DNA of 32,824 nucleotides from a virus (IMGVR_UViG_3300010970_000108:1-32824); one strand, 5' to 3'; positions 9,162-22,294 are shown, counted from the first letter of the stretch. A program made the numbers and translations. The notes: generated from the sequence alone by a model not told the origin.

Positions 9162-9354
9162 TGTCTAAACGGTTTTTATTTGTATCTACAAACTTTACAA
9201 TATAGTTCACACAAGACTGGCATCCTTTCCAGGCGAAATCTCCATTCGGTGAAATCTTCTGCGCCAATGCTACTAACTCATTCATCTCGTTTTCACTTGG
9301 ATGAACATCGATTCCGAGCCTGACTCGTTCAAATAAATAATCAAAGTGTTTCAT
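9121..9354 (-). CDS. Hypothetical protein
   Basis: 77-aa ORF between the sigma-like gene and terS. It overlaps both (14 nt and 41 nt). Contains a CQSC pair. Confidence 0.4.
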   Translation of the reverse strand: MKHFDYLFERVRLGIDVHPSENEMNELVALAQKISPNGDFAWKGCQSCVNYIVKFVDTNKNRLDNATKKENTSNKKQ

Positions 9355-9814
9355 TTATGTAAATTTTAATTTTCTTCTTAGCTTTTTTAACCATCTGAAA
9401 TATTGTTGAATAAGGAATCCCAGTAATCTCACCGACCTTTCGATATGTTTTATGCTCTGCATATAGTACAAGAACCTTCTCGCTAACCCAATTCAATTTA
9501 TTCAAAGGTACGATTATTTGTTCTTCTTGTTCTTCTGATGGATGTACAAAGTCATTAGTCAACACCTCACGCATTTTAATGCGGTTAAATTCGGAGTTCT
9601 GCCAAGTTACCATGTTGTACATCATCTTAACCACGTAACCGATAAAACGACCTTCAGAATGCAATTTAATAATAACCGATTCATCCTTGTTAAGTAATTC
9701 TAAAAAACAATGTTGAAGTAAATCATCCTGCAACTCAGTTGGCTTTATTCTCGACAAGCATTCCCTAAGTTCATCACTTCGGTAAAGGTCCTCGATAATT
9801 TGCCTTGCAGTCAT
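9341..9814 (-). CDS. Phage-encoded sigma-70 family (ECF-like) sigma factor
   Basis: 157 aa with a two-domain layout. Region-2-like: DDLLQHCFLELL...FIGYVVKMMYNMV. Region-4 HTH-like: KVLVLYAEHKTYRKVGEITGIPYSTIFQMVKKAKKKI. It aligns by eye with RpoE architecture. Confidence 0.65.
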   Translation of the reverse strand: MTARQIIEDLYRSDELRECLSRIKPTELQDDLLQHCFLELLNKDESVIIKLHSEGRFIGYVVKMMYNMVTWQNSEFNRIKMREVLTNDFVHPSEEQEEQIIVPLNKLNWVSEKVLVLYAEHKTYRKVGEITGIPYSTIFQMVKKAKKKIKIYINETL

Positions 9815-9818
9815 TGAA

Positions 9819-9826
9819 CAAAGTTA
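9819..9826 (-). promoter_or_regulatory. Possible Bacteroidota -7 box (TAACTTTG) upstream of the sigma gene
   Basis: Minus strand reads TAACTTTG-TTCA-ATG, which matches TAnnTTTG. It is only 4 nt from the ATG, so it would give a leaderless transcript or may be coincidental. Confidence 0.25.
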
Positions 9827-9840
9827 CTCATAGTTTATAC

Positions 9841-10188
9841 AAAGTAAAAAAGTAAAAGTAAAATCAACTTACATAGAAATATACATAAATACTATTGTAT
9901 TTACTATATATATAATGTTTTTTATATTCCTAATGTTTTTCTTTACTAATTTACTTTCACTAAAAAAACGGTTTACTTTTTTACTTTGTTCATTTTTGCC
10001 GTGTTAACTATTTAGAAATCAATTAGTTAACTATCATTTTAAAAGTAAAATAAAAGTAAAATAGTAAAAAAATAATTTTACTTTGGCTTTACTTATTTAC
10101 TTTTTTGCTTAACATATTACAATTTTTTCTAATATCAAATTTTGAAAGTAAATTTTTTATTTTACTTTTTTACTTTTGAATTTACTTT
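9841..10188. repeat. Array of 8-mer AAAGTAAA / TTTACTTT repeats in alternating-orientation clusters; candidate origin iterons or regulator-binding array
   Basis: Exact forward copies start at 9841, 9849, 9855, 10042, 10053 and 10145. Exact reverse copies start at 9950, 9972, 9980, 10077, 10096, 10161, 10169 and 10181. Near copies at 9942, 10061 and 10088. Two GTTAACTAT direct repeats (10003, 10026) sit in the centre. This is the largest non-coding tract in the genome. Confidence 0.8.
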
Positions 10189-12462
10189 CTAAAGCATTTT
10201 TTGGTATGAACCATGACCTAATCTATCAAATAAATCATTACTATTTTTTAACCACATCTTTATTGTAGGGCCTTTAACATTATATTTTGCACCAATTTCA
10301 ATGGCAGTCTTTGTGCTGAATGCTTCCGTTAGTTCTTTATAGATATTAAGATAAGGTTGTTTTAATTTATCCAAAGGCGTTTCAGGACTGAGTATCTTCA
10401 ATGCCTTTAGCATATTTCCTAAGAAGTATTCCGTTAACCTGATGGCTCGTTCTACTGCTGATTGTTGAACCACGTTTGATCTATTATCCAAATCATCACA
10501 ACATTGTAAAATGAGTGCAAACCTTAAACAATAGGCTTGATACTTGGCAATTATACCCTTTGCATTCTCATCTTGCGATTTATTATAATACAAGTTTTTA
10601 TAATCATGCCATGACTTGTAAAGTGTTAAAGCATCACTACTTAATGTGTACTTGTCTTTAATATCGTTATCCCTAAATATCAATAGTTTATCAAAAATTC
10701 TATGAACTTGTTCCTTAATATACTCAGGACAACTAATGATATCAAATGATGGCTTTGGTTCTGATTCAGGAAACACAAATAAAAATCTATGATAGAACCC
10801 GTTGAACTGGTTATCATTCTGCGAAAGAATATCCATGATACCTGGTTGAATACCGCCAACGATTCCCATTGAATAGTCGATAACTTTTCTATCATCTGCT
10901 GAAATCCTTTGCTGGAATACCGTTTCACTTGACCACATTTGTAGCCATTTTTGATTATCATCACCAGGTTTATATTGGCTCATTCGCTTTATGAATCCAG
11001 CAAGTTCATCGGCAACCAAACAACAACCTTTAGTATTGTATTGCAAAACATTAACAACCGTTTCCATTGTTGCATCATCAATAATCATCTGACTTAATAT
11101 TGGCTTGATAGGTAATGGCTTGTTTTTATCTTTCTTATCAACCCTTAGTAGTTCTTCGCTATATGATGCAACTTTCTTTCTATATGCCTTGTAATTTTCA
11201 TCATCAATGTTTTTTAGGTAGTTGTAAGCAATTCCCATCGCAGGACTCTTACCACCTCCAGCATGAGCCACAATAGCCATGTATAAGTTTGTGCGTAGTT
11301 TGTAACCTTGCAAGGCTTCAAGGTAACAAGTATTCCCGATGGCGGTGCTTAATGCCGAAAGCATAAACCCTGCAATATATTCGTTTTGGATTCGATGGCT
11401 CTTAATGTAATCTTCTATCTCCTTCGGGAAGATGTCATAAGGAAACAACATCCTATCTTTCAATATTGGTTGATGCTCAATAGGTTTTTGGTTTATTTCA
11501 ATTCCAATACTATCAGCAATACATTGAATTTCATCTAATGTTTTTTTCCAATCTTTGCCATTCTTATAATAAATTATCCTTGATGGTGTTAATACCCATG
11601 ACCTATCTCCGTTACCTTTGGCATCTGCCCATGATGGAAATCCTTGTAATGATGTTGTAAATAACAATACCTTGCGTGAACTGAAATAAACTTTAGCTGA
11701 GTAGTTAGTAAGTGAACCCCTGCGCAAGTAAGCAGTAAATTTATCCTTTGATTTATATCTGAAATCCTTTGATTCATACAAACTCATTTGATTAAGCATC
11801 TCATCGAATGCCTCATCAGTTATTTCACGATCAAACAATAAACAACTATTTTCATATTGTTGCGGATATTCAACTGGGTAAAAAGTATTATTGATTTCTT
11901 CCTTGTACTTATTGAATAAACTACCCGTACTGATTAACAAATCGTATTCATCATCAGTTAGTTCTTCCAAATCCTCAAAAGAATTATGAAACATATCGTA
12001 GCCAGGTGTAGGGCTGCAATAAGACAACAACCCACCAGTATAGACTGCAATCACTTCTTTACCCGATTCACTTGCTGCCAAAGATATCTTATGTGTAAGT
12101 TTTGGGTATTTGATGTAAACATGAAAGCCTTTGTTTCTTGTGGATTCAATGCAGACTTTCCTTAGTACATCAGGATTAGTGGCTTCAACTATATTGAACC
12201 AATCGTTAAACGATACCGTTCCATCTTCGTTCTTAGTATCAAAGTCAATTGTACCAAATGGAGGAAATAGTTTAAGTGCAATTCCGTTTGAATTATCGAT
12301 TAAGTCAATCCATTTTTCTAAGGTTGTTTCATTCCATTCAGATTCTAAAATAGTTGAATGCGCAATGATATGGCTTGATGCAACTTTACTGCTTGAATCC
12401 CATTTGATGGGTAAAGGCTTTAACCCTAATTTTACCAGTTCTTTAAAGATGTTGATGTTCAT
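10189..12462 (-). CDS. Replicase: N-terminal primase-polymerase (Prim-Pol) fused to a DUF3987/D5-like P-loop helicase
   Basis: 757 aa. Prim-Pol motifs GTIDFDTKNEDG (DxD) and NKGFHVYIKY. Central Walker A AHAGGGKSPA, in a context typical of DUF3987 helicases. Confidence 0.7.
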   Translation of the reverse strand: MNINIFKELVKLGLKPLPIKWDSSSKVASSHIIAHSTILESEWNETTLEKWIDLIDNSNGIALKLFPPFGTIDFDTKNEDGTVSFNDWFNIVEATNPDVLRKVCIESTRNKGFHVYIKYPKLTHKISLAASESGKEVIAVYTGGLLSYCSPTPGYDMFHNSFEDLEELTDDEYDLLISTGSLFNKYKEEINNTFYPVEYPQQYENSCLLFDREITDEAFDEMLNQMSLYESKDFRYKSKDKFTAYLRRGSLTNYSAKVYFSSRKVLLFTTSLQGFPSWADAKGNGDRSWVLTPSRIIYYKNGKDWKKTLDEIQCIADSIGIEINQKPIEHQPILKDRMLFPYDIFPKEIEDYIKSHRIQNEYIAGFMLSALSTAIGNTCYLEALQGYKLRTNLYMAIVAHAGGGKSPAMGIAYNYLKNIDDENYKAYRKKVASYSEELLRVDKKDKNKPLPIKPILSQMIIDDATMETVVNVLQYNTKGCCLVADELAGFIKRMSQYKPGDDNQKWLQMWSSETVFQQRISADDRKVIDYSMGIVGGIQPGIMDILSQNDNQFNGFYHRFLFVFPESEPKPSFDIISCPEYIKEQVHRIFDKLLIFRDNDIKDKYTLSSDALTLYKSWHDYKNLYYNKSQDENAKGIIAKYQAYCLRFALILQCCDDLDNRSNVVQQSAVERAIRLTEYFLGNMLKALKILSPETPLDKLKQPYLNIYKELTEAFSTKTAIEIGAKYNVKGPTIKMWLKNSNDLFDRLGHGSYQKML

Positions 12463-19838: not shown

Positions 19839-20003
19839 TTAGCTGATTTTTAAAGTTGGTAAAATAAGTGTGCGCACTGCATTGGTTAATGAGCCATGAA
19901 CTTTCAAGATAGCTTTCTTTTCGTTATCTTTAAGATAGGCTGATACCAGTTTTAGTCGGTCAGATTCAGGAATAGTCTTTCGACCTACTTTTTGTTTTTC
20001 CAT
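19839..20003 (-). CDS. Small basic protein, first gene of the leftward early operon (possible DNA-binding regulator)
   Basis: The ATG at 20003 (MEKQKVGRKTIPESDRLKLVSAYL...) lies 22 nt downstream of a TAnnTTTG box. The track start at 20078 would include the promoter. Confidence 0.4.
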   Translation of the reverse strand: MEKQKVGRKTIPESDRLKLVSAYLKDNEKKAILKVHGSLTNAVRTLILPTLKIS

Positions 20004-20025
20004 TGTTAATAGTTTTGTTGAATTG

Positions 20026-20033
20026 CAAATATA
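20026..20033 (-). promoter_or_regulatory. Bacteroidota-type -7 box TATATTTG (leftward early promoter)
   Basis: Minus strand TATATTTG matches TAnnTTTG. It is 22 nt upstream of the ATG at 20003, in the only divergent intergenic region. Confidence 0.45.
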
Positions 20034-20092
20034 CATAATTAATTGAAATAAAAAATATTTTTTAAACTTGATAAACATATTGTTTTATTTAT

Positions 20093-20100
20093 TATCTTTG
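20093..20100 (+). promoter_or_regulatory. Bacteroidota-type -7 box TATCTTTG (rightward early promoter)
   Basis: Plus strand TATCTTTG matches TAnnTTTG. A CTTG lies 22 nt upstream as a possible -33 element. The ATG at 20120 is 19 nt downstream. Confidence 0.45.
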
Positions 20101-20119
20101 AATCCTAAATAACAACACA

Positions 20120-20272
20120 ATGACTAAATGTAACTGCCCAAAACAATCAACTAACTGCCTACAATGTGAGGCAGTAGCTTTCTTTTTTCGCCATCAGTTT
20201 TTAATTGTATCAATAATAGTTTTAACCCTTCTTGTCCTATGTGGTCAAGTACAAGACAATGAAACAAGATGA
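20120..20272 (+). CDS. Possible 50-aa Cys-rich membrane peptide
   Basis: Hand-translated MTKCNCPKQSTNCLQCEAVAFFFRHQFLIVSIIVLTLLVLCGQVQDNETR. Its TGA overlaps the next ATG (ATGA). Below the track size cutoff. Confidence 0.35.
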   Translation: MTKCNCPKQSTNCLQCEAVAFFFRHQFLIVSIIVLTLLVLCGQVQDNETR

Positions 20273-20613
20273 TAAATGCAAGAGTAATTCCAGGGCTGAA
20301 GTTCAAAGCCGTTAAAATTCAAAGAGTAGTTTCAATGGATGCAATTATAAAAGTAGTTTGCGAGCATTATGAAACCGATATAACTGCACTACGTAAGCAG
20401 AACCGAACAAGTAGAACCGTTCAAGCAAGGTATATTTTGTTTTATTTATTACGCAAACATACTGATATGTCATTGGTTGATGTTGCAAATTACTTTGCTC
20501 CTGGCATCAAGGACCATTCAACCGTTATACATGGCGTAAGGTTCATTGAAGGTCAACTTAACGCAAAGCATGATAACTCAATTAAAGTCATAATGAATGA
20601 AATTTACATCTAA
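20269..20613 (+). CDS. DnaA C-terminal (domain IV) HTH-only protein
   Basis: 114 aa. RTVQARYILFYLLRKHTDMSLVDVANYFAPGIKDHSTVIHGVRFIE matches the Bac_DnaA_C pattern (R..A..YL.R..T..S...IG..F...DHSTV.H). No AAA+ domain is present. Confidence 0.7.
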   Translation: MINARVIPGLKFKAVKIQRVVSMDAIIKVVCEHYETDITALRKQNRTSRTVQARYILFYLLRKHTDMSLVDVANYFAPGIKDHSTVIHGVRFIEGQLNAKHDNSIKVIMNEIYI

Positions 20614-20679
20614 ATGGATTCTCTGCCGTGCTTGTCGGCACTATTTCACCATAACAATTAAAACTAAAAAATCAACACT

Positions 20680-20994
20680 ATGTCCAAAATGCAAAGCAGT
20701 AAACTAAAAAAAGATGTTTGGATGGACCTACTCACTAACGAACGTTATCGAATCCTCGGTCAAGTAATTGATGGTATGATATACCATTATGAATGTGTAA
20801 ACGAAGTAAAAGAAATGCTCCAACGTTGGGATGAAAACGGTTTCTTAAGATCTATCATCATGCCTGATAATGAACCTGATAATATGTGTACCAGTTGCAA
20901 TGGTACTGGCGAAGGTTCTCATCCTGATTCTACTTGCTGGCATTGCAGCGGTGATGGTGCTATCATCCCTAAAACTTATGACTATGAAGGGTAG
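20680..20994 (+). CDS. Protein with a DnaJ-type CxxCxGxG zinc-finger pair
   Basis: 104 aa. The C-terminus carries CTSCNGTG and CWHCSGDG. Confidence 0.5.
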   Translation: MSKMQSSKLKKDVWMDLLTNERYRILGQVIDGMIYHYECVNEVKEMLQRWDENGFLRSIIMPDNEPDNMCTSCNGTGEGSHPDSTCWHCSGDGAIIPKTYDYEG

Positions 20995-21070
20995 AGTAAA
21001 TGCACTTGTAGTCATTATCAGTATCTTATTTTGGTACATTATTTATAAACTAATCACATTCATATTATGA
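20984..21070 (+). CDS. Possible 28-aa membrane peptide
   Basis: MKGRVNALVVIISILFWYIIYKLITFIL. Its stop overlaps the next ATG (ATGA). The longer track ORF 20870..21070 is in the same frame but overlaps the zinc-finger gene. Confidence 0.25.
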   Translation: MKGRVNALVVIISILFWYIIYKLITFIL

Positions 21071-21270
21071 ACACCTCAAGCATTCACGAATACATAGAAC
21101 GCAATCAGGCTCGTAAAATATTACGAGCCAAGTATTCAAATGGACAAATGTATTATTTCCATCAAGGTACTTGGATAACACAACTCCAGTACAATAAACT
21201 TTATCCGCATTACAATTTTCTTAGAAATAGTAACACGGTAAATAATTGCGATAAAACTAAAATAGCATAA
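21067..21270 (+). CDS. Hypothetical protein
   Basis: 67-aa ORF coupled to its neighbours. No motif. Confidence 0.4.
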   Translation: MNTSSIHEYIERNQARKILRAKYSNGQMYYFHQGTWITQLQYNKLYPHYNFLRNSNTVNNCDKTKIA

Positions 21271-21271
21271 T

Positions 21272-21604
21272 ATGTACGAATACGAAGCAGAAGTAATCCG
21301 AGTAATAGATGGTGATACCATTGTATTACGCATTGATTTAGGATTTAAACTTAGTTGGAAAGTATCTTGCAGGCTTCACGGGATCGATTGCCCTGAACTA
21401 CGAAGTAAGTCAGCATCTGAACGAATAGCAGCTAAGGCAGCAAAGGACTTTACTCAAGGTGAATTACCAATCGGTTCAACCGTGTTAGTGTACTCCGTTG
21501 AACTTGACAAGTATGGCAGACCTTTAGTAGATATCTTTTACGGTGATAAGCACCTGAATGAAGAACTTGTATCAAATAACCATGCTAAATTATACATGAT
21601 ATGA
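21272..21604 (+). CDS. Staphylococcal-nuclease-like (thermonuclease/SNase fold) nuclease
   Basis: 110 aa. VIRVIDGDTIVL, CRLHGIDCPE and DKYGRPLVDIF match the SNase pattern (DGDT ... RL.GID.PE ... D.YGR.L). Confidence 0.7.
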   Translation: MYEYEAEVIRVIDGDTIVLRIDLGFKLSWKVSCRLHGIDCPELRSKSASERIAAKAAKDFTQGELPIGSTVLVYSVELDKYGRPLVDIFYGDKHLNEELVSNNHAKLYMI

Positions 21605-21909
21605 ATAGGTATAAAATAATGGTCTATACTATACAAGGTCAGCAGTTGTTTTTCTGCCACTGGAAAATGGGAACTAACTACCACACACGAATGGTAAGTA
21701 ACCGAGGTGACTCGATATGGTACACCGATAAAGATATTGACTACGTTGAACATTTTTTAAAAACAAACATTGAGAAACTCGAAGTTAAAACCTACACAAT
21801 ATCACCCGCTACGCACAAACCTGATAAGACTCAGGCACGACAACGAAATGACTCAGTTGTGTTTCGGGGAGATGCTCGGCATATCGAAAGGTATGGTTCA
21901 ATCTTATGA
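21601..21909 (+). CDS. Hypothetical protein; its 3' third overlaps the XRE frame and is probably not all coding
   Basis: 102-aa ORF. The last ~45 codons overlap 21770..22000 and translate to an R/D/T-rich, low-complexity tail. Confidence 0.35.
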   Translation: MNRYKIMVYTIQGQQLFFCHWKMGTNYHTRMVSNRGDSIWYTDKDIDYVEHFLKTNIEKLEVKTYTISPATHKPDKTQARQRNDSVVFRGDARHIERYGSIL

Positions 21910-22000
21910 AGATGGCAGAGCCGAGCCATCAATAGCAACTTTAAAAAAGATAGTTGATGTTTTCGGGATTGATGATTTGTATTTATTCTTATATCAGTAA
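21770..22000 (+). CDS. XRE-family (Cro/CI-type) HTH protein
   Basis: LRTNLIRLRHDNEMTQLCFGEMLGISKGMVQSYEDGRAEPSIATLKKIVDVFGI is a canonical HTH_3 domain. The only start that keeps helix 1 is a TTG at 21770. Confidence 0.65.
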   Translation: MRNSKLKPTQYHPLRTNLIRLRHDNEMTQLCFGEMLGISKGMVQSYEDGRAEPSIATLKKIVDVFGIDDLYLFLYQ

Positions 22001-22011
22001 AATGTTTAATT

Positions 22012-22242
22012 ATGAATAATCAGAGAATGCAATTATTTATTGTGAAATATTCAATAAATTATCCGTCAGGGAAAAAATGGGTTACTGAAAGAAAAGCCTA
22101 TGGTATAACAAAACTTGGAGCAATAGATGTAATTAAATGGATACATAGCAATAAAGACATATCTATTATTTCAGTAGAGCCTACTTATGAATATTCAGCA
22201 TTGGCAGTTTTTGGTGATAATCATACCGTTGGTGAACGTTAA
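22012..22242 (+). CDS. Hypothetical protein, last gene of the plus-strand cassette
   Basis: 76-aa ORF followed by a strong terminator. Confidence 0.4.
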   Translation: MNNQRMQLFIVKYSINYPSGKKWVTERKAYGITKLGAIDVIKWIHSNKDISIISVEPTYEYSALAVFGDNHTVGER

Positions 22243-22265
22243 TTGACCTTTACTTGTTCTTATAC

Positions 22266-22294
22266 GCCAGTAGTTAACACTACTGGCTTTTTTT
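22266..22294 (+). terminator. Intrinsic terminator ending the plus-strand cassette
   Basis: GCCAGTAGT-taac-ACTACTGGC (perfect 9-bp stem), then seven T. It lies at the convergence point with the endolysin gene. Confidence 0.85.

Follow-up and report, generated by a model that had tools for sequence, protein, structure and literature searches.

The plus-strand block has the make-up of one compact operon

The viral sequence IMGVR_UViG_3300010970_000108 (32,824 nt; this whole stretch is called the window below) carries at positions 20120–22242 a cassette of ten tightly packed open reading frames (ORFs), o1 to o10, which overlap or nearly touch one another. The window is a complete circular phage genome, since its first 55 bases are the same as its last 55, giving a circle of 32,769 bp; an identical contig is present in the public assembly of run SRR5433230. 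The minus strand holds every homology-supported ORF of at least 70 amino acids (aa), bar those in the cassette. A sign change of GC and AT skew is restricted, genome-wide, to 20001–22000. ORF homology and skew therefore agree with the first-pass annotation, which had singled out the cassette as the only plus-strand block.

The cassette opens with o1 (20120–20272, 50 aa) and o2 (20269–20613, 114 aa), the latter consisting of DnaA domain IV only, followed by a 36-aa zinc ribbon, o3 (20597–20707), and by o4 (20680–20994, 104 aa), which combines a three-helix domain with two CXXCXGXG motifs. Next come a 30-aa hydrophobic peptide, o5 (20978–21070), then o6 (21067–21270, 67 aa), for which no family match was found, and o7 (21272–21604), a 110-aa minimal staphylococcal-nuclease-like protein. 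The 3′ part holds o8 (21601–21909, 102 aa), o9 (21770–22000), a small helix-turn-helix (HTH) protein of the XRE/Cro type, and o10 (22012–22242, 76 aa), which is present in the window only. An earlier count of nine to ten small proteins is settled at ten ORFs, including o3 and o5, which are tiny yet conserved. These genes had also been described as chained by ATGA overlaps; this holds for o1/o2, o5/o6 and o7/o8, while the other junctions overlap by 17–140 nt or are 1–11 nt apart.

Upstream of o1, a divergent promoter region (20004–20119) carries TAnnTTTG boxes on both strands and a palindrome, AAAAAATATTTTTT, midway between its ends. The plus-strand −7-type box, TATCTTTG (20093–20100), lies 19 nt ahead of the o1 ATG, and its minus-strand counterpart, TATATTTG (20033–20026), lies 22 nt ahead of the ATG of the divergent gene. 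Both boxes and the A/T palindrome core are kept in eight relatives. At the other end, an intrinsic terminator (22266–22294, plus strand) is formed by a perfect 9-bp stem with five GC pairs (GCCAGTAGT-TAAC-ACTACTGGC) followed by T7. The stem is kept in seven relatives (L136, L138, L139 and L142–145), in which the o9 stop codon falls inside its loop. This conservation bears out the proposal that a divergent promoter and a perfect terminator delimit the block. From these sequence features, we read 20120–22242 as one compact transcription unit with a host-type −7 box promoter at its start and a conserved terminator at its end.

Two further hairpins were noted at the 5′ end. One (ACTGCCT…AGGCAGT) is followed by a T-rich run inside o1 (hairpin plus T-run 20154–20175; site 20154–20190). 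The other, separate and conserved, is found with its T-run (GGCAGATCCTYAAAACTGCC-T5) just upstream of o1 in relatives that have additional 5′ ORFs. They could be attenuators or internal terminators, or a coding coincidence. No part of the window matched an Rfam family.

A stable core and three cargo slots in related phages

Relatives were collected by exact-protein look-ups and profile scans, which yielded about ten distinct metagenomic phages, several of them as contigs of 32.4–32.7 kb, and the presence of cassette genes was scored by tblastn of every cassette protein against the relatives' loci. A nucleotide search of GenBank phages returned no relative, only short matches from endolysin and HNH genes, and the first scans of viral contigs gave 133 loci with DnaA_C or RecT-like homologues and no further cassette gene. 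The phages collected here form a lineage of about 32.7 kb that had not been annotated before. Its members share one architecture: the late and lysis genes run towards the cassette, and a conserved small gene and the recombination/replication operon are transcribed away from it.

All close relatives keep o2, o3, o4, o8 and o9, and most keep o5 and o6. Together, o2, o3, o4, o5, o6, o8 and o9 make up a core that, judged from its distribution, is co-inherited within the lineage. The remaining genes come and go. In L136, L139, L146, L171 and L175, o1 is 69–96% identical to that of the window; in L138 and L142–145 it is substituted by an unrelated hydrophobic peptide of about 30 aa, and additional unrelated ORFs occur at the 5′ end of the cassette in relatives. 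The nuclease gene o7 is found in the window, L135–137, L139–141, L171/172 and L175, that is, only in the sub-lineage that carries o1. It is absent from L138, L142–145 and L169, and in the sub-lineage without it o6 directly adjoins o8. A homologue of o10 was found by tblastn in no relative. The first-pass annotation had proposed co-conservation of the gene set as a check, and the outcome is divided: most genes recur in about ten relatives, but the nuclease is not conserved across them and o10 is specific to the window.

The 3′ end of o9 is duplicated (CTTTACTTGTTCTTATAC) between o10 and the terminator. The copies stand on both flanks of o10, at 21975–22000 and 22243–22265 (…TTATTCTTATAT… and …CTTGTTCTTATACGCCAGTAGT). 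This duplication indicates that o10 was inserted recently, downstream of the HTH gene and ahead of the terminator. In L171, tRNA genes take the place of o10. In the interval in question (10495–10810 of JBMFGH010001726.1, assembly GCA_050655915.1), ARAGORN identified one clear tRNA gene, whose anticodon loop is odd, and a second tRNA-like match of 129 nt. The comparison thus points to three cargo slots that gain and lose genes, at the 5′ end, at the nuclease position and at the 3′ end, and so documents gene-sized slots within an otherwise stable operon.

A more distant pair, L173/L174 (32.4 kb, same backbone), keeps only o4 and o6 in this slot; DnaA_C, o8, the HTH and the nuclease are all missing there by tblastn. 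In L174, an o3 zinc-ribbon homologue with 66% identity lies at 380–481 on the minus strand, opposite in orientation, inside the replication region and outside the cassette, which suggests that mini-genes of the cassette move between modules.

We also examined 75 loci with distant DnaA_C genes. Of these, 53 are viral contigs, nearly all of which encode small DnaA_C-only ORFs, and 22 are metagenome contigs, mostly with full-length bacterial dnaA. Neither these loci nor three isolate-phage loci contained a homologue of o3, o4, o6 or o8. Because co-conservation is confined to one lineage and distant DnaA_C loci lack these four genes, the gene set is not a recurrent multi-domain system. The earlier idea that four domains here work as one system does not hold up either: the nuclease is missing from a whole sub-lineage, o10 occurs once, L173/L174 does with o4 and o6, and the 75 loci have none of the four neighbours. 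As to the domains themselves, Bac_DnaA_C, SNase and HTH_3 score above their Pfam thresholds, while the DnaJ zinc finger amounts to two motifs below threshold. We conclude that the cassette is a variant of the phage small accessory-gene block and not a new system.

o2 is a stand-alone DnaA domain IV

The o2 protein matched Bac_DnaA_C (PF08299) with E = 2e-19 and 69.7 bits (threshold 31.5). Its residues 21–102 cover the whole of domain IV, aligned to E. coli DnaA 374–453 in structure 1J1V. Alignment to 1J1V, 1L8Q and 3PVP showed that it keeps equivalents of R399, R407, D433, H434, T435 and H439, which we take to be the DnaA-box contacts in 1J1V, and most of these six residues are invariant across 21 homologues. 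Within its 114 aa there is no AAA+ domain III, no domain I and no further Pfam domain; o2 thus has domain IV alone and does not count as an initiator. From the retained residues, we infer that it would bind 9-mer DnaA boxes.

The phage genome holds one consensus DnaA box (TTWTNCACA) and five boxes at no more than one mismatch, against 12.4 expected, and DnaA boxes are not enriched in it. A depletion of boxes was considered and rejected, being strong under an order-1 model and gone under an order-3 model and a motif-permutation control. Three of the five one-mismatch boxes (TTAACCACA, TTATCCAAA and a second TTATCCAAA) lie at 10248–10492, on one strand and about 118 nt apart. They are inside the 3′ end of the primase-helicase gene and adjoin a field of repeats described below. 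Two of them recur in L138, which conservation of the coding sequence could explain.

Proteins of this kind are common in uncultivated phages: among the viral DnaA_C hits in IMG/VR contigs, 52 of 53 are shorter than 200 aa. A search of full-text literature found no functional study of phage DnaA-domain-IV-only proteins.

o3 and o4 are small proteins with zinc-binding motifs

The o3 ORF, whose ends overlap o2 on one side and o4 on the other, encodes a CxxC...CxxC zinc ribbon with a weak match to Zn_ribbon_8. Its four cysteines and the nearly invariant segment ILCRACRH[YR]FTIT[IV]K are conserved in nine sequences, and its identity is 75–86% across all relatives. Gene callers had missed it; in relatives they extended o4 upstream in an alternative frame, a frame that has two stops in the window.

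The o4 protein is the most persistent gene product of the cassette slot. It resembles the DnaJ zinc finger at the motif level only, scoring 18.1 bits against DnaJ_CXXCXGXG (PF00684), below the threshold of 32.7. The eight residues of its two CXXCXGXG motifs (C70, C73, G75, G77, C86, C89, G91 and G93) are invariant in 36 sequences, so that the pair would be able to form one zinc centre. There are two repeats in o4 against four in DnaJ, and no J-domain match was obtained. In an AlphaFold2 model, helices at residues 11–52 were predicted with a predicted local distance difference test (pLDDT) score of about 90, and the zinc finger was poorly modelled. The N-terminal three-helix domain is also found as widespread stand-alone uncharacterised proteins of 55–100 aa. 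A profile search of 1.84 billion representatives returned only uncharacterised small proteins and zinc-finger segments, PHROGs and Pfam gave weak matches only, mostly to families of unknown function, and the model had no significant match in the PDB, its only fold matches being weak and all to Anti-TRAP.

o7 keeps the catalytic residues of SNase

The o7 protein matched SNase (PF00565) with E = 5.6e-9 and 36.9 bits (threshold 21), and phrog_452, annotated as endonuclease, with E = 1e-25. When aligned to the S. aureus nuclease, it keeps the equivalents of D21, R35, D40, E43 and R87, with T41 changed to C, and lacks the C-terminal helix. By this alignment, the catalytic and Ca2+-binding residues of o7 are intact.

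An HTH gene is overprinted on the tail of o8

The o8 protein is 40–94% identical in all close relatives. AlphaFold2 predicted a beta-beta-beta-alpha-beta domain over residues 1–70 (pLDDT above 90) and a disordered tail over residues 76–102 (pLDDT below 50). The model had no PDB match and only weak matches in BFVD, to uncharacterised phage proteins; weak matches in PHROGs and Pfam were to families of unknown function.

The o9 protein matched HTH_3 (PF01381) with E = 1e-8 and 35.4 bits (threshold 23). At about 65–76 aa it is Cro-sized. It has no CI-type C-terminal oligomerisation or peptidase domain, the ORF ending six residues past the HTH_3 match (residue 70 of 76). Gene callers missed it too, so that two conserved genes had escaped annotation: the one for the 36-aa zinc ribbon, and this HTH gene, which begins within the 3′ part of o8. 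It is 54–92% identical in all close relatives, with the same overlap throughout: the final 140 nt of o8 are also read, in the +1 frame, as the start of o9 (21770–21909, with equivalents in L136, L138, L139, L142–145 and L171).

Substitutions within the overlap track the codon phase of o9, with variability of 0.44, 0.28 and 0.20, the highest at o9 third positions, and the o8-only and o9-only stretches each show their own codon phase. The o8 frame stays open across the overlap in all eight sequences, while the third frame contains 3–8 stops. As o8 is folded over residues 1–70 and disordered beyond, it is on an unstructured tail that the folded o9 HTH is overprinted.

No conserved ATG precedes o9, and none that would include the first helix. 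A TTG stands before helix 1 at one of two sites in every relative, and TTG at 21770 is the likely start in the window. The absence of a conserved ATG, together with a T6A5 run (21753–21763) at the frame boundary, had prompted the idea of an o8–o9 frameshift fusion. Such a fusion is conceivable but was not adopted, for three reasons: a stop comes within a few codons in the −1 frame, all eight sequences have an open o8 frame, and the TTG is present in every relative.

o1, o5, o6 and o10 are unassigned

The four remaining ORFs returned nothing from PHROGs and Pfam. The o1 product has a CxC-x6-CxxC motif, a hydrophobic helix and a conserved tail, GQVQDNETR. The o5 peptide is 47–97% identical in most relatives, and o6 is 64–98% identical in relatives, absent only from L138, and 31% identical in the distant L173.

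Genome context and host type

The cassette is bordered on one side by the last of the late (lysis) genes and on the other by the first gene of the recombination/replication operon. Genes assigned by homology on the minus strand encode the terminase small and large subunits, a prohead protease and a sigma-70 region-4-like protein; the portal, tail-associated proteins and an M15 endolysin; and an HNH endonuclease, an SNF2-type helicase, a DNA methyltransferase, a primase-helicase and a PD-(D/E)XK-like nuclease. The first gene of the divergent early operon (19839–20003, minus strand) encodes a conserved 54-aa protein (MEKQKVGRK...), which is 50–96% identical in all relatives, where it is called as a gene of 51–62 aa. 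It had zero matches in Pfam, PHROG and PADLOC, and may be a regulator.

A 374-nt AT-rich non-coding gap (9815–10188) separates the primase-helicase gene from the sigma-70-region-4-like gene. It contains 14 of the 22 exact genome-wide copies of AAAGTAAA/TTTACTTT, in both orientations, together with further degenerate copies, and all 14 stand at equivalent positions in L138 (918–1291). This iteron field is a candidate replication origin or late-promoter control field. The first gene past it, directly before the terminase genes, encodes a 157-aa protein with a Sigma70_r4_2 match (9341–9814, minus strand), which may be a phage-encoded regulator of late transcription.

A Shine-Dalgarno core was found in 0 of 38 genes, and leaders are 51% A. 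These features and the TAnnTTTG boxes fit a Bacteroidota-type host, in line with the host type first supposed. Among ORFs longer than 130 aa, scans of PHROGs and Pfam gave no match to integrase or partition families; several large ORFs had no family match at all. Scans of 185,579 species genomes with o4 and DnaA_C detected no prophage or plasmid copies. PADLOC defence models matched only at the level of generic SNase and HTH models.

A probable lineage-specific accessory operon and its alternatives

On balance we lean towards reading the cassette as an accessory operon, specific to its lineage, in which a virulent phage of 32.8 kb combines a stable core with flexible slots. Under such a scheme, host RNA polymerase would transcribe it early, as its promoter boxes suggest, and the products would act separately as small DNA-binding or protein-binding factors. 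The o2 protein would occupy DnaA boxes of the TTATCCACA type but, without AAA+, could not open DNA. Since DnaA boxes are practically absent from the phage genome, its targets would be host sites (oriC and the DnaA regulon), where it might block or divert host initiation. A Cro-like o9 would regulate phage promoters, and o7, where present, would from the conservation of its residues be an active nuclease of the Ca2+ type, serving to provide nucleotides or to break down host nucleic acid.

The role of o2 as a competitor for host DnaA boxes is, within this scheme, a tentative proposal drawn from its sequence. Somewhat more speculative is its extension, by which phage stand-alone DnaA domain IV proteins would be a widespread class of factors that, unable to oligomerise or unwind DNA, sit on host DnaA boxes and so switch off or redirect chromosome initiation and the DnaA regulon of the host during infection; in this lineage the factor would come from an early operon along with zinc-binding partners. 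If o2 does compete for host boxes, this would be a simple new way to stop host replication, using the DNA-reading head of the initiator without its engine. If it does not, the cassette would be no more than a usual set of small phage genes without assigned function.

Several observations weigh against this scheme. We infer early timing only from the promoter boxes, and TAnnTTTG boxes also stand upstream of other operons. The strict Bacteroidota pattern TTTG-N17–21-TAnnTTTG has no match in the divergent region 20004–20119. As for the −33 element, relatives carry TTTG 15 nt upstream. The scarcity of DnaA boxes is not significant against an order-3 background (3.1 ± 1.7 expected, P = 0.18). Four relatives (L136 at 3590, L139 at 9515, L142 at 3100 and L146 at 823) have their single consensus DnaA box within the cassette promoter, where it precedes the −7 box by a few bases. 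These boxes read TGTGGAAAA or TGTGTAAAA, which differ only at the degenerate position of the consensus, and belong to relatives with a second promoter variant; the window's own variant has no DnaA box. Their location is a hint of self-regulation more than of host targeting. Where isolated phages carry DnaA_C-only genes, these are found inside replication/recombination modules and annotated as replication initiation. Finally, o4, o6, o8 and o10 have no function assignable by sequence or fold searches.

The placement of DnaA_C-only genes in isolated phages speaks for a replication-control module, in which o2 would be an origin-binding or initiation accessory factor that recruits or displaces host DnaA at phage DNA, with its neighbours assisting the primase-helicase. 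The HTVC203P gene, annotated as DNA replication initiation, belongs to a replication/recombination module, the Arctus_1 gene directly follows a DNA replication protein, and in L011 and L033–035 helicase or primase homologues follow the gene on its own strand. In the window, o2 has a weak match to phrog_30669 ('replication initiation protein') and the cassette adjoins the recombination/replication operon. The three one-mismatch boxes at 10248–10492 adjoin the conserved iteron field, but they are imperfect and within coding sequence, and L138 has only two of them. With a single consensus DnaA box in the genome, a candidate origin repeat (AAAGTAAA) unlike a DnaA box, no AAA+ or oligomerisation domain in o2, and a phage of the same backbone (L173/L174) that does without o2, we regard this explanation as rather unlikely, though it deserves serious attention.

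Less probable again is a regulatory switch, an immunity region or a lysogeny remnant, in which the HTH protein, perhaps with o2, would repress the divergent early promoter for temporal control, a carrier state or superinfection exclusion. The cassette does occupy the position of a lysogeny module, between lysis and early genes and in opposite orientation. All close relatives keep an XRE-type HTH, a conserved palindrome stands between the divergent promoters, and four relatives have a DnaA box within the cassette promoter. The window's own promoter has none, however, and the HTH gene is the last core gene of the operon rather than a promoter-proximal one, its product of about 65–76 aa lacking an oligomerisation domain. 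No integrase, partition or plasmid-replication gene was found in the complete genome by the PHROGs and Pfam scans, and no integrated or plasmid copy occurs in the species genomes. For lack of an integrase or partition gene and of genomic copies, the cassette is not a lysogeny module despite its position, and the first-pass annotation was right to set that role aside.

Anti-defence loci typically consist of small, fast-turning-over genes in a flexible slot near an early promoter, and the small genes beside the early promoter here and the gain and loss at three slots would suit inhibition of host defence by one or more of o4, o6, o8, o10 and the nuclease, but the core genes are stably inherited rather than patchy and no known defence or anti-defence family was matched with the PADLOC, PHROGs and Pfam models beyond the generic HTH and SNase domains, which makes this the most doubtful explanation.

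Comparison with known systems

Host-takeover or early small-gene modules of virulent phages, such as that of SPO1, are likewise compact runs of small genes with a host-type promoter and little or no annotation. The cassette differs from them in being transcribed against the rest of the genome and in ending with a regulator-type HTH. The o4 protein shares the CXXCXGXG motif with DnaJ and Anti-TRAP and differs from them by its fusion to an uncharacterised three-helix domain.

The closest parallel for o2 is the complex of E. coli DnaA (residues 374–467) with the DnaA box in 1J1V, which it resembles over the whole of domain IV and in the equivalents of the contact residues. A full DnaA has about 450–480 aa against the 114 aa of o2, which, without domains I–III, has no ATPase, oligomerisation or helicase-loading surface; only this phage family has the basic N-terminal extension of 20 aa. 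Phage databases already contain small proteins made of DnaA domain IV alone, among them phrog_16091, gp22 of Pelagibacter phage HTVC203P ('DNA replication initiation') and a 153-aa protein of Leeuwenhoekiella phage Arctus_1, and such proteins are common in uncultivated phages. The DnaA_C-only proteins of other phages are 25–48% identical to o2 and usually 140–180 aa long, with an additional N-terminal region. Their genes lie on the same strand as replication genes, and none is accompanied by o3, o4, o6 or o8.

The B. subtilis skin element (YqaH) and an E. coli cryptic prophage (YfdR) encode small proteins of phage origin that have been proposed to disturb the initiation of host replication; neither protein is related to o2 in sequence. 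YqaH and YfdR bind the DnaA protein itself, whereas o2 would mimic the DNA-binding domain of DnaA and compete for its sites.

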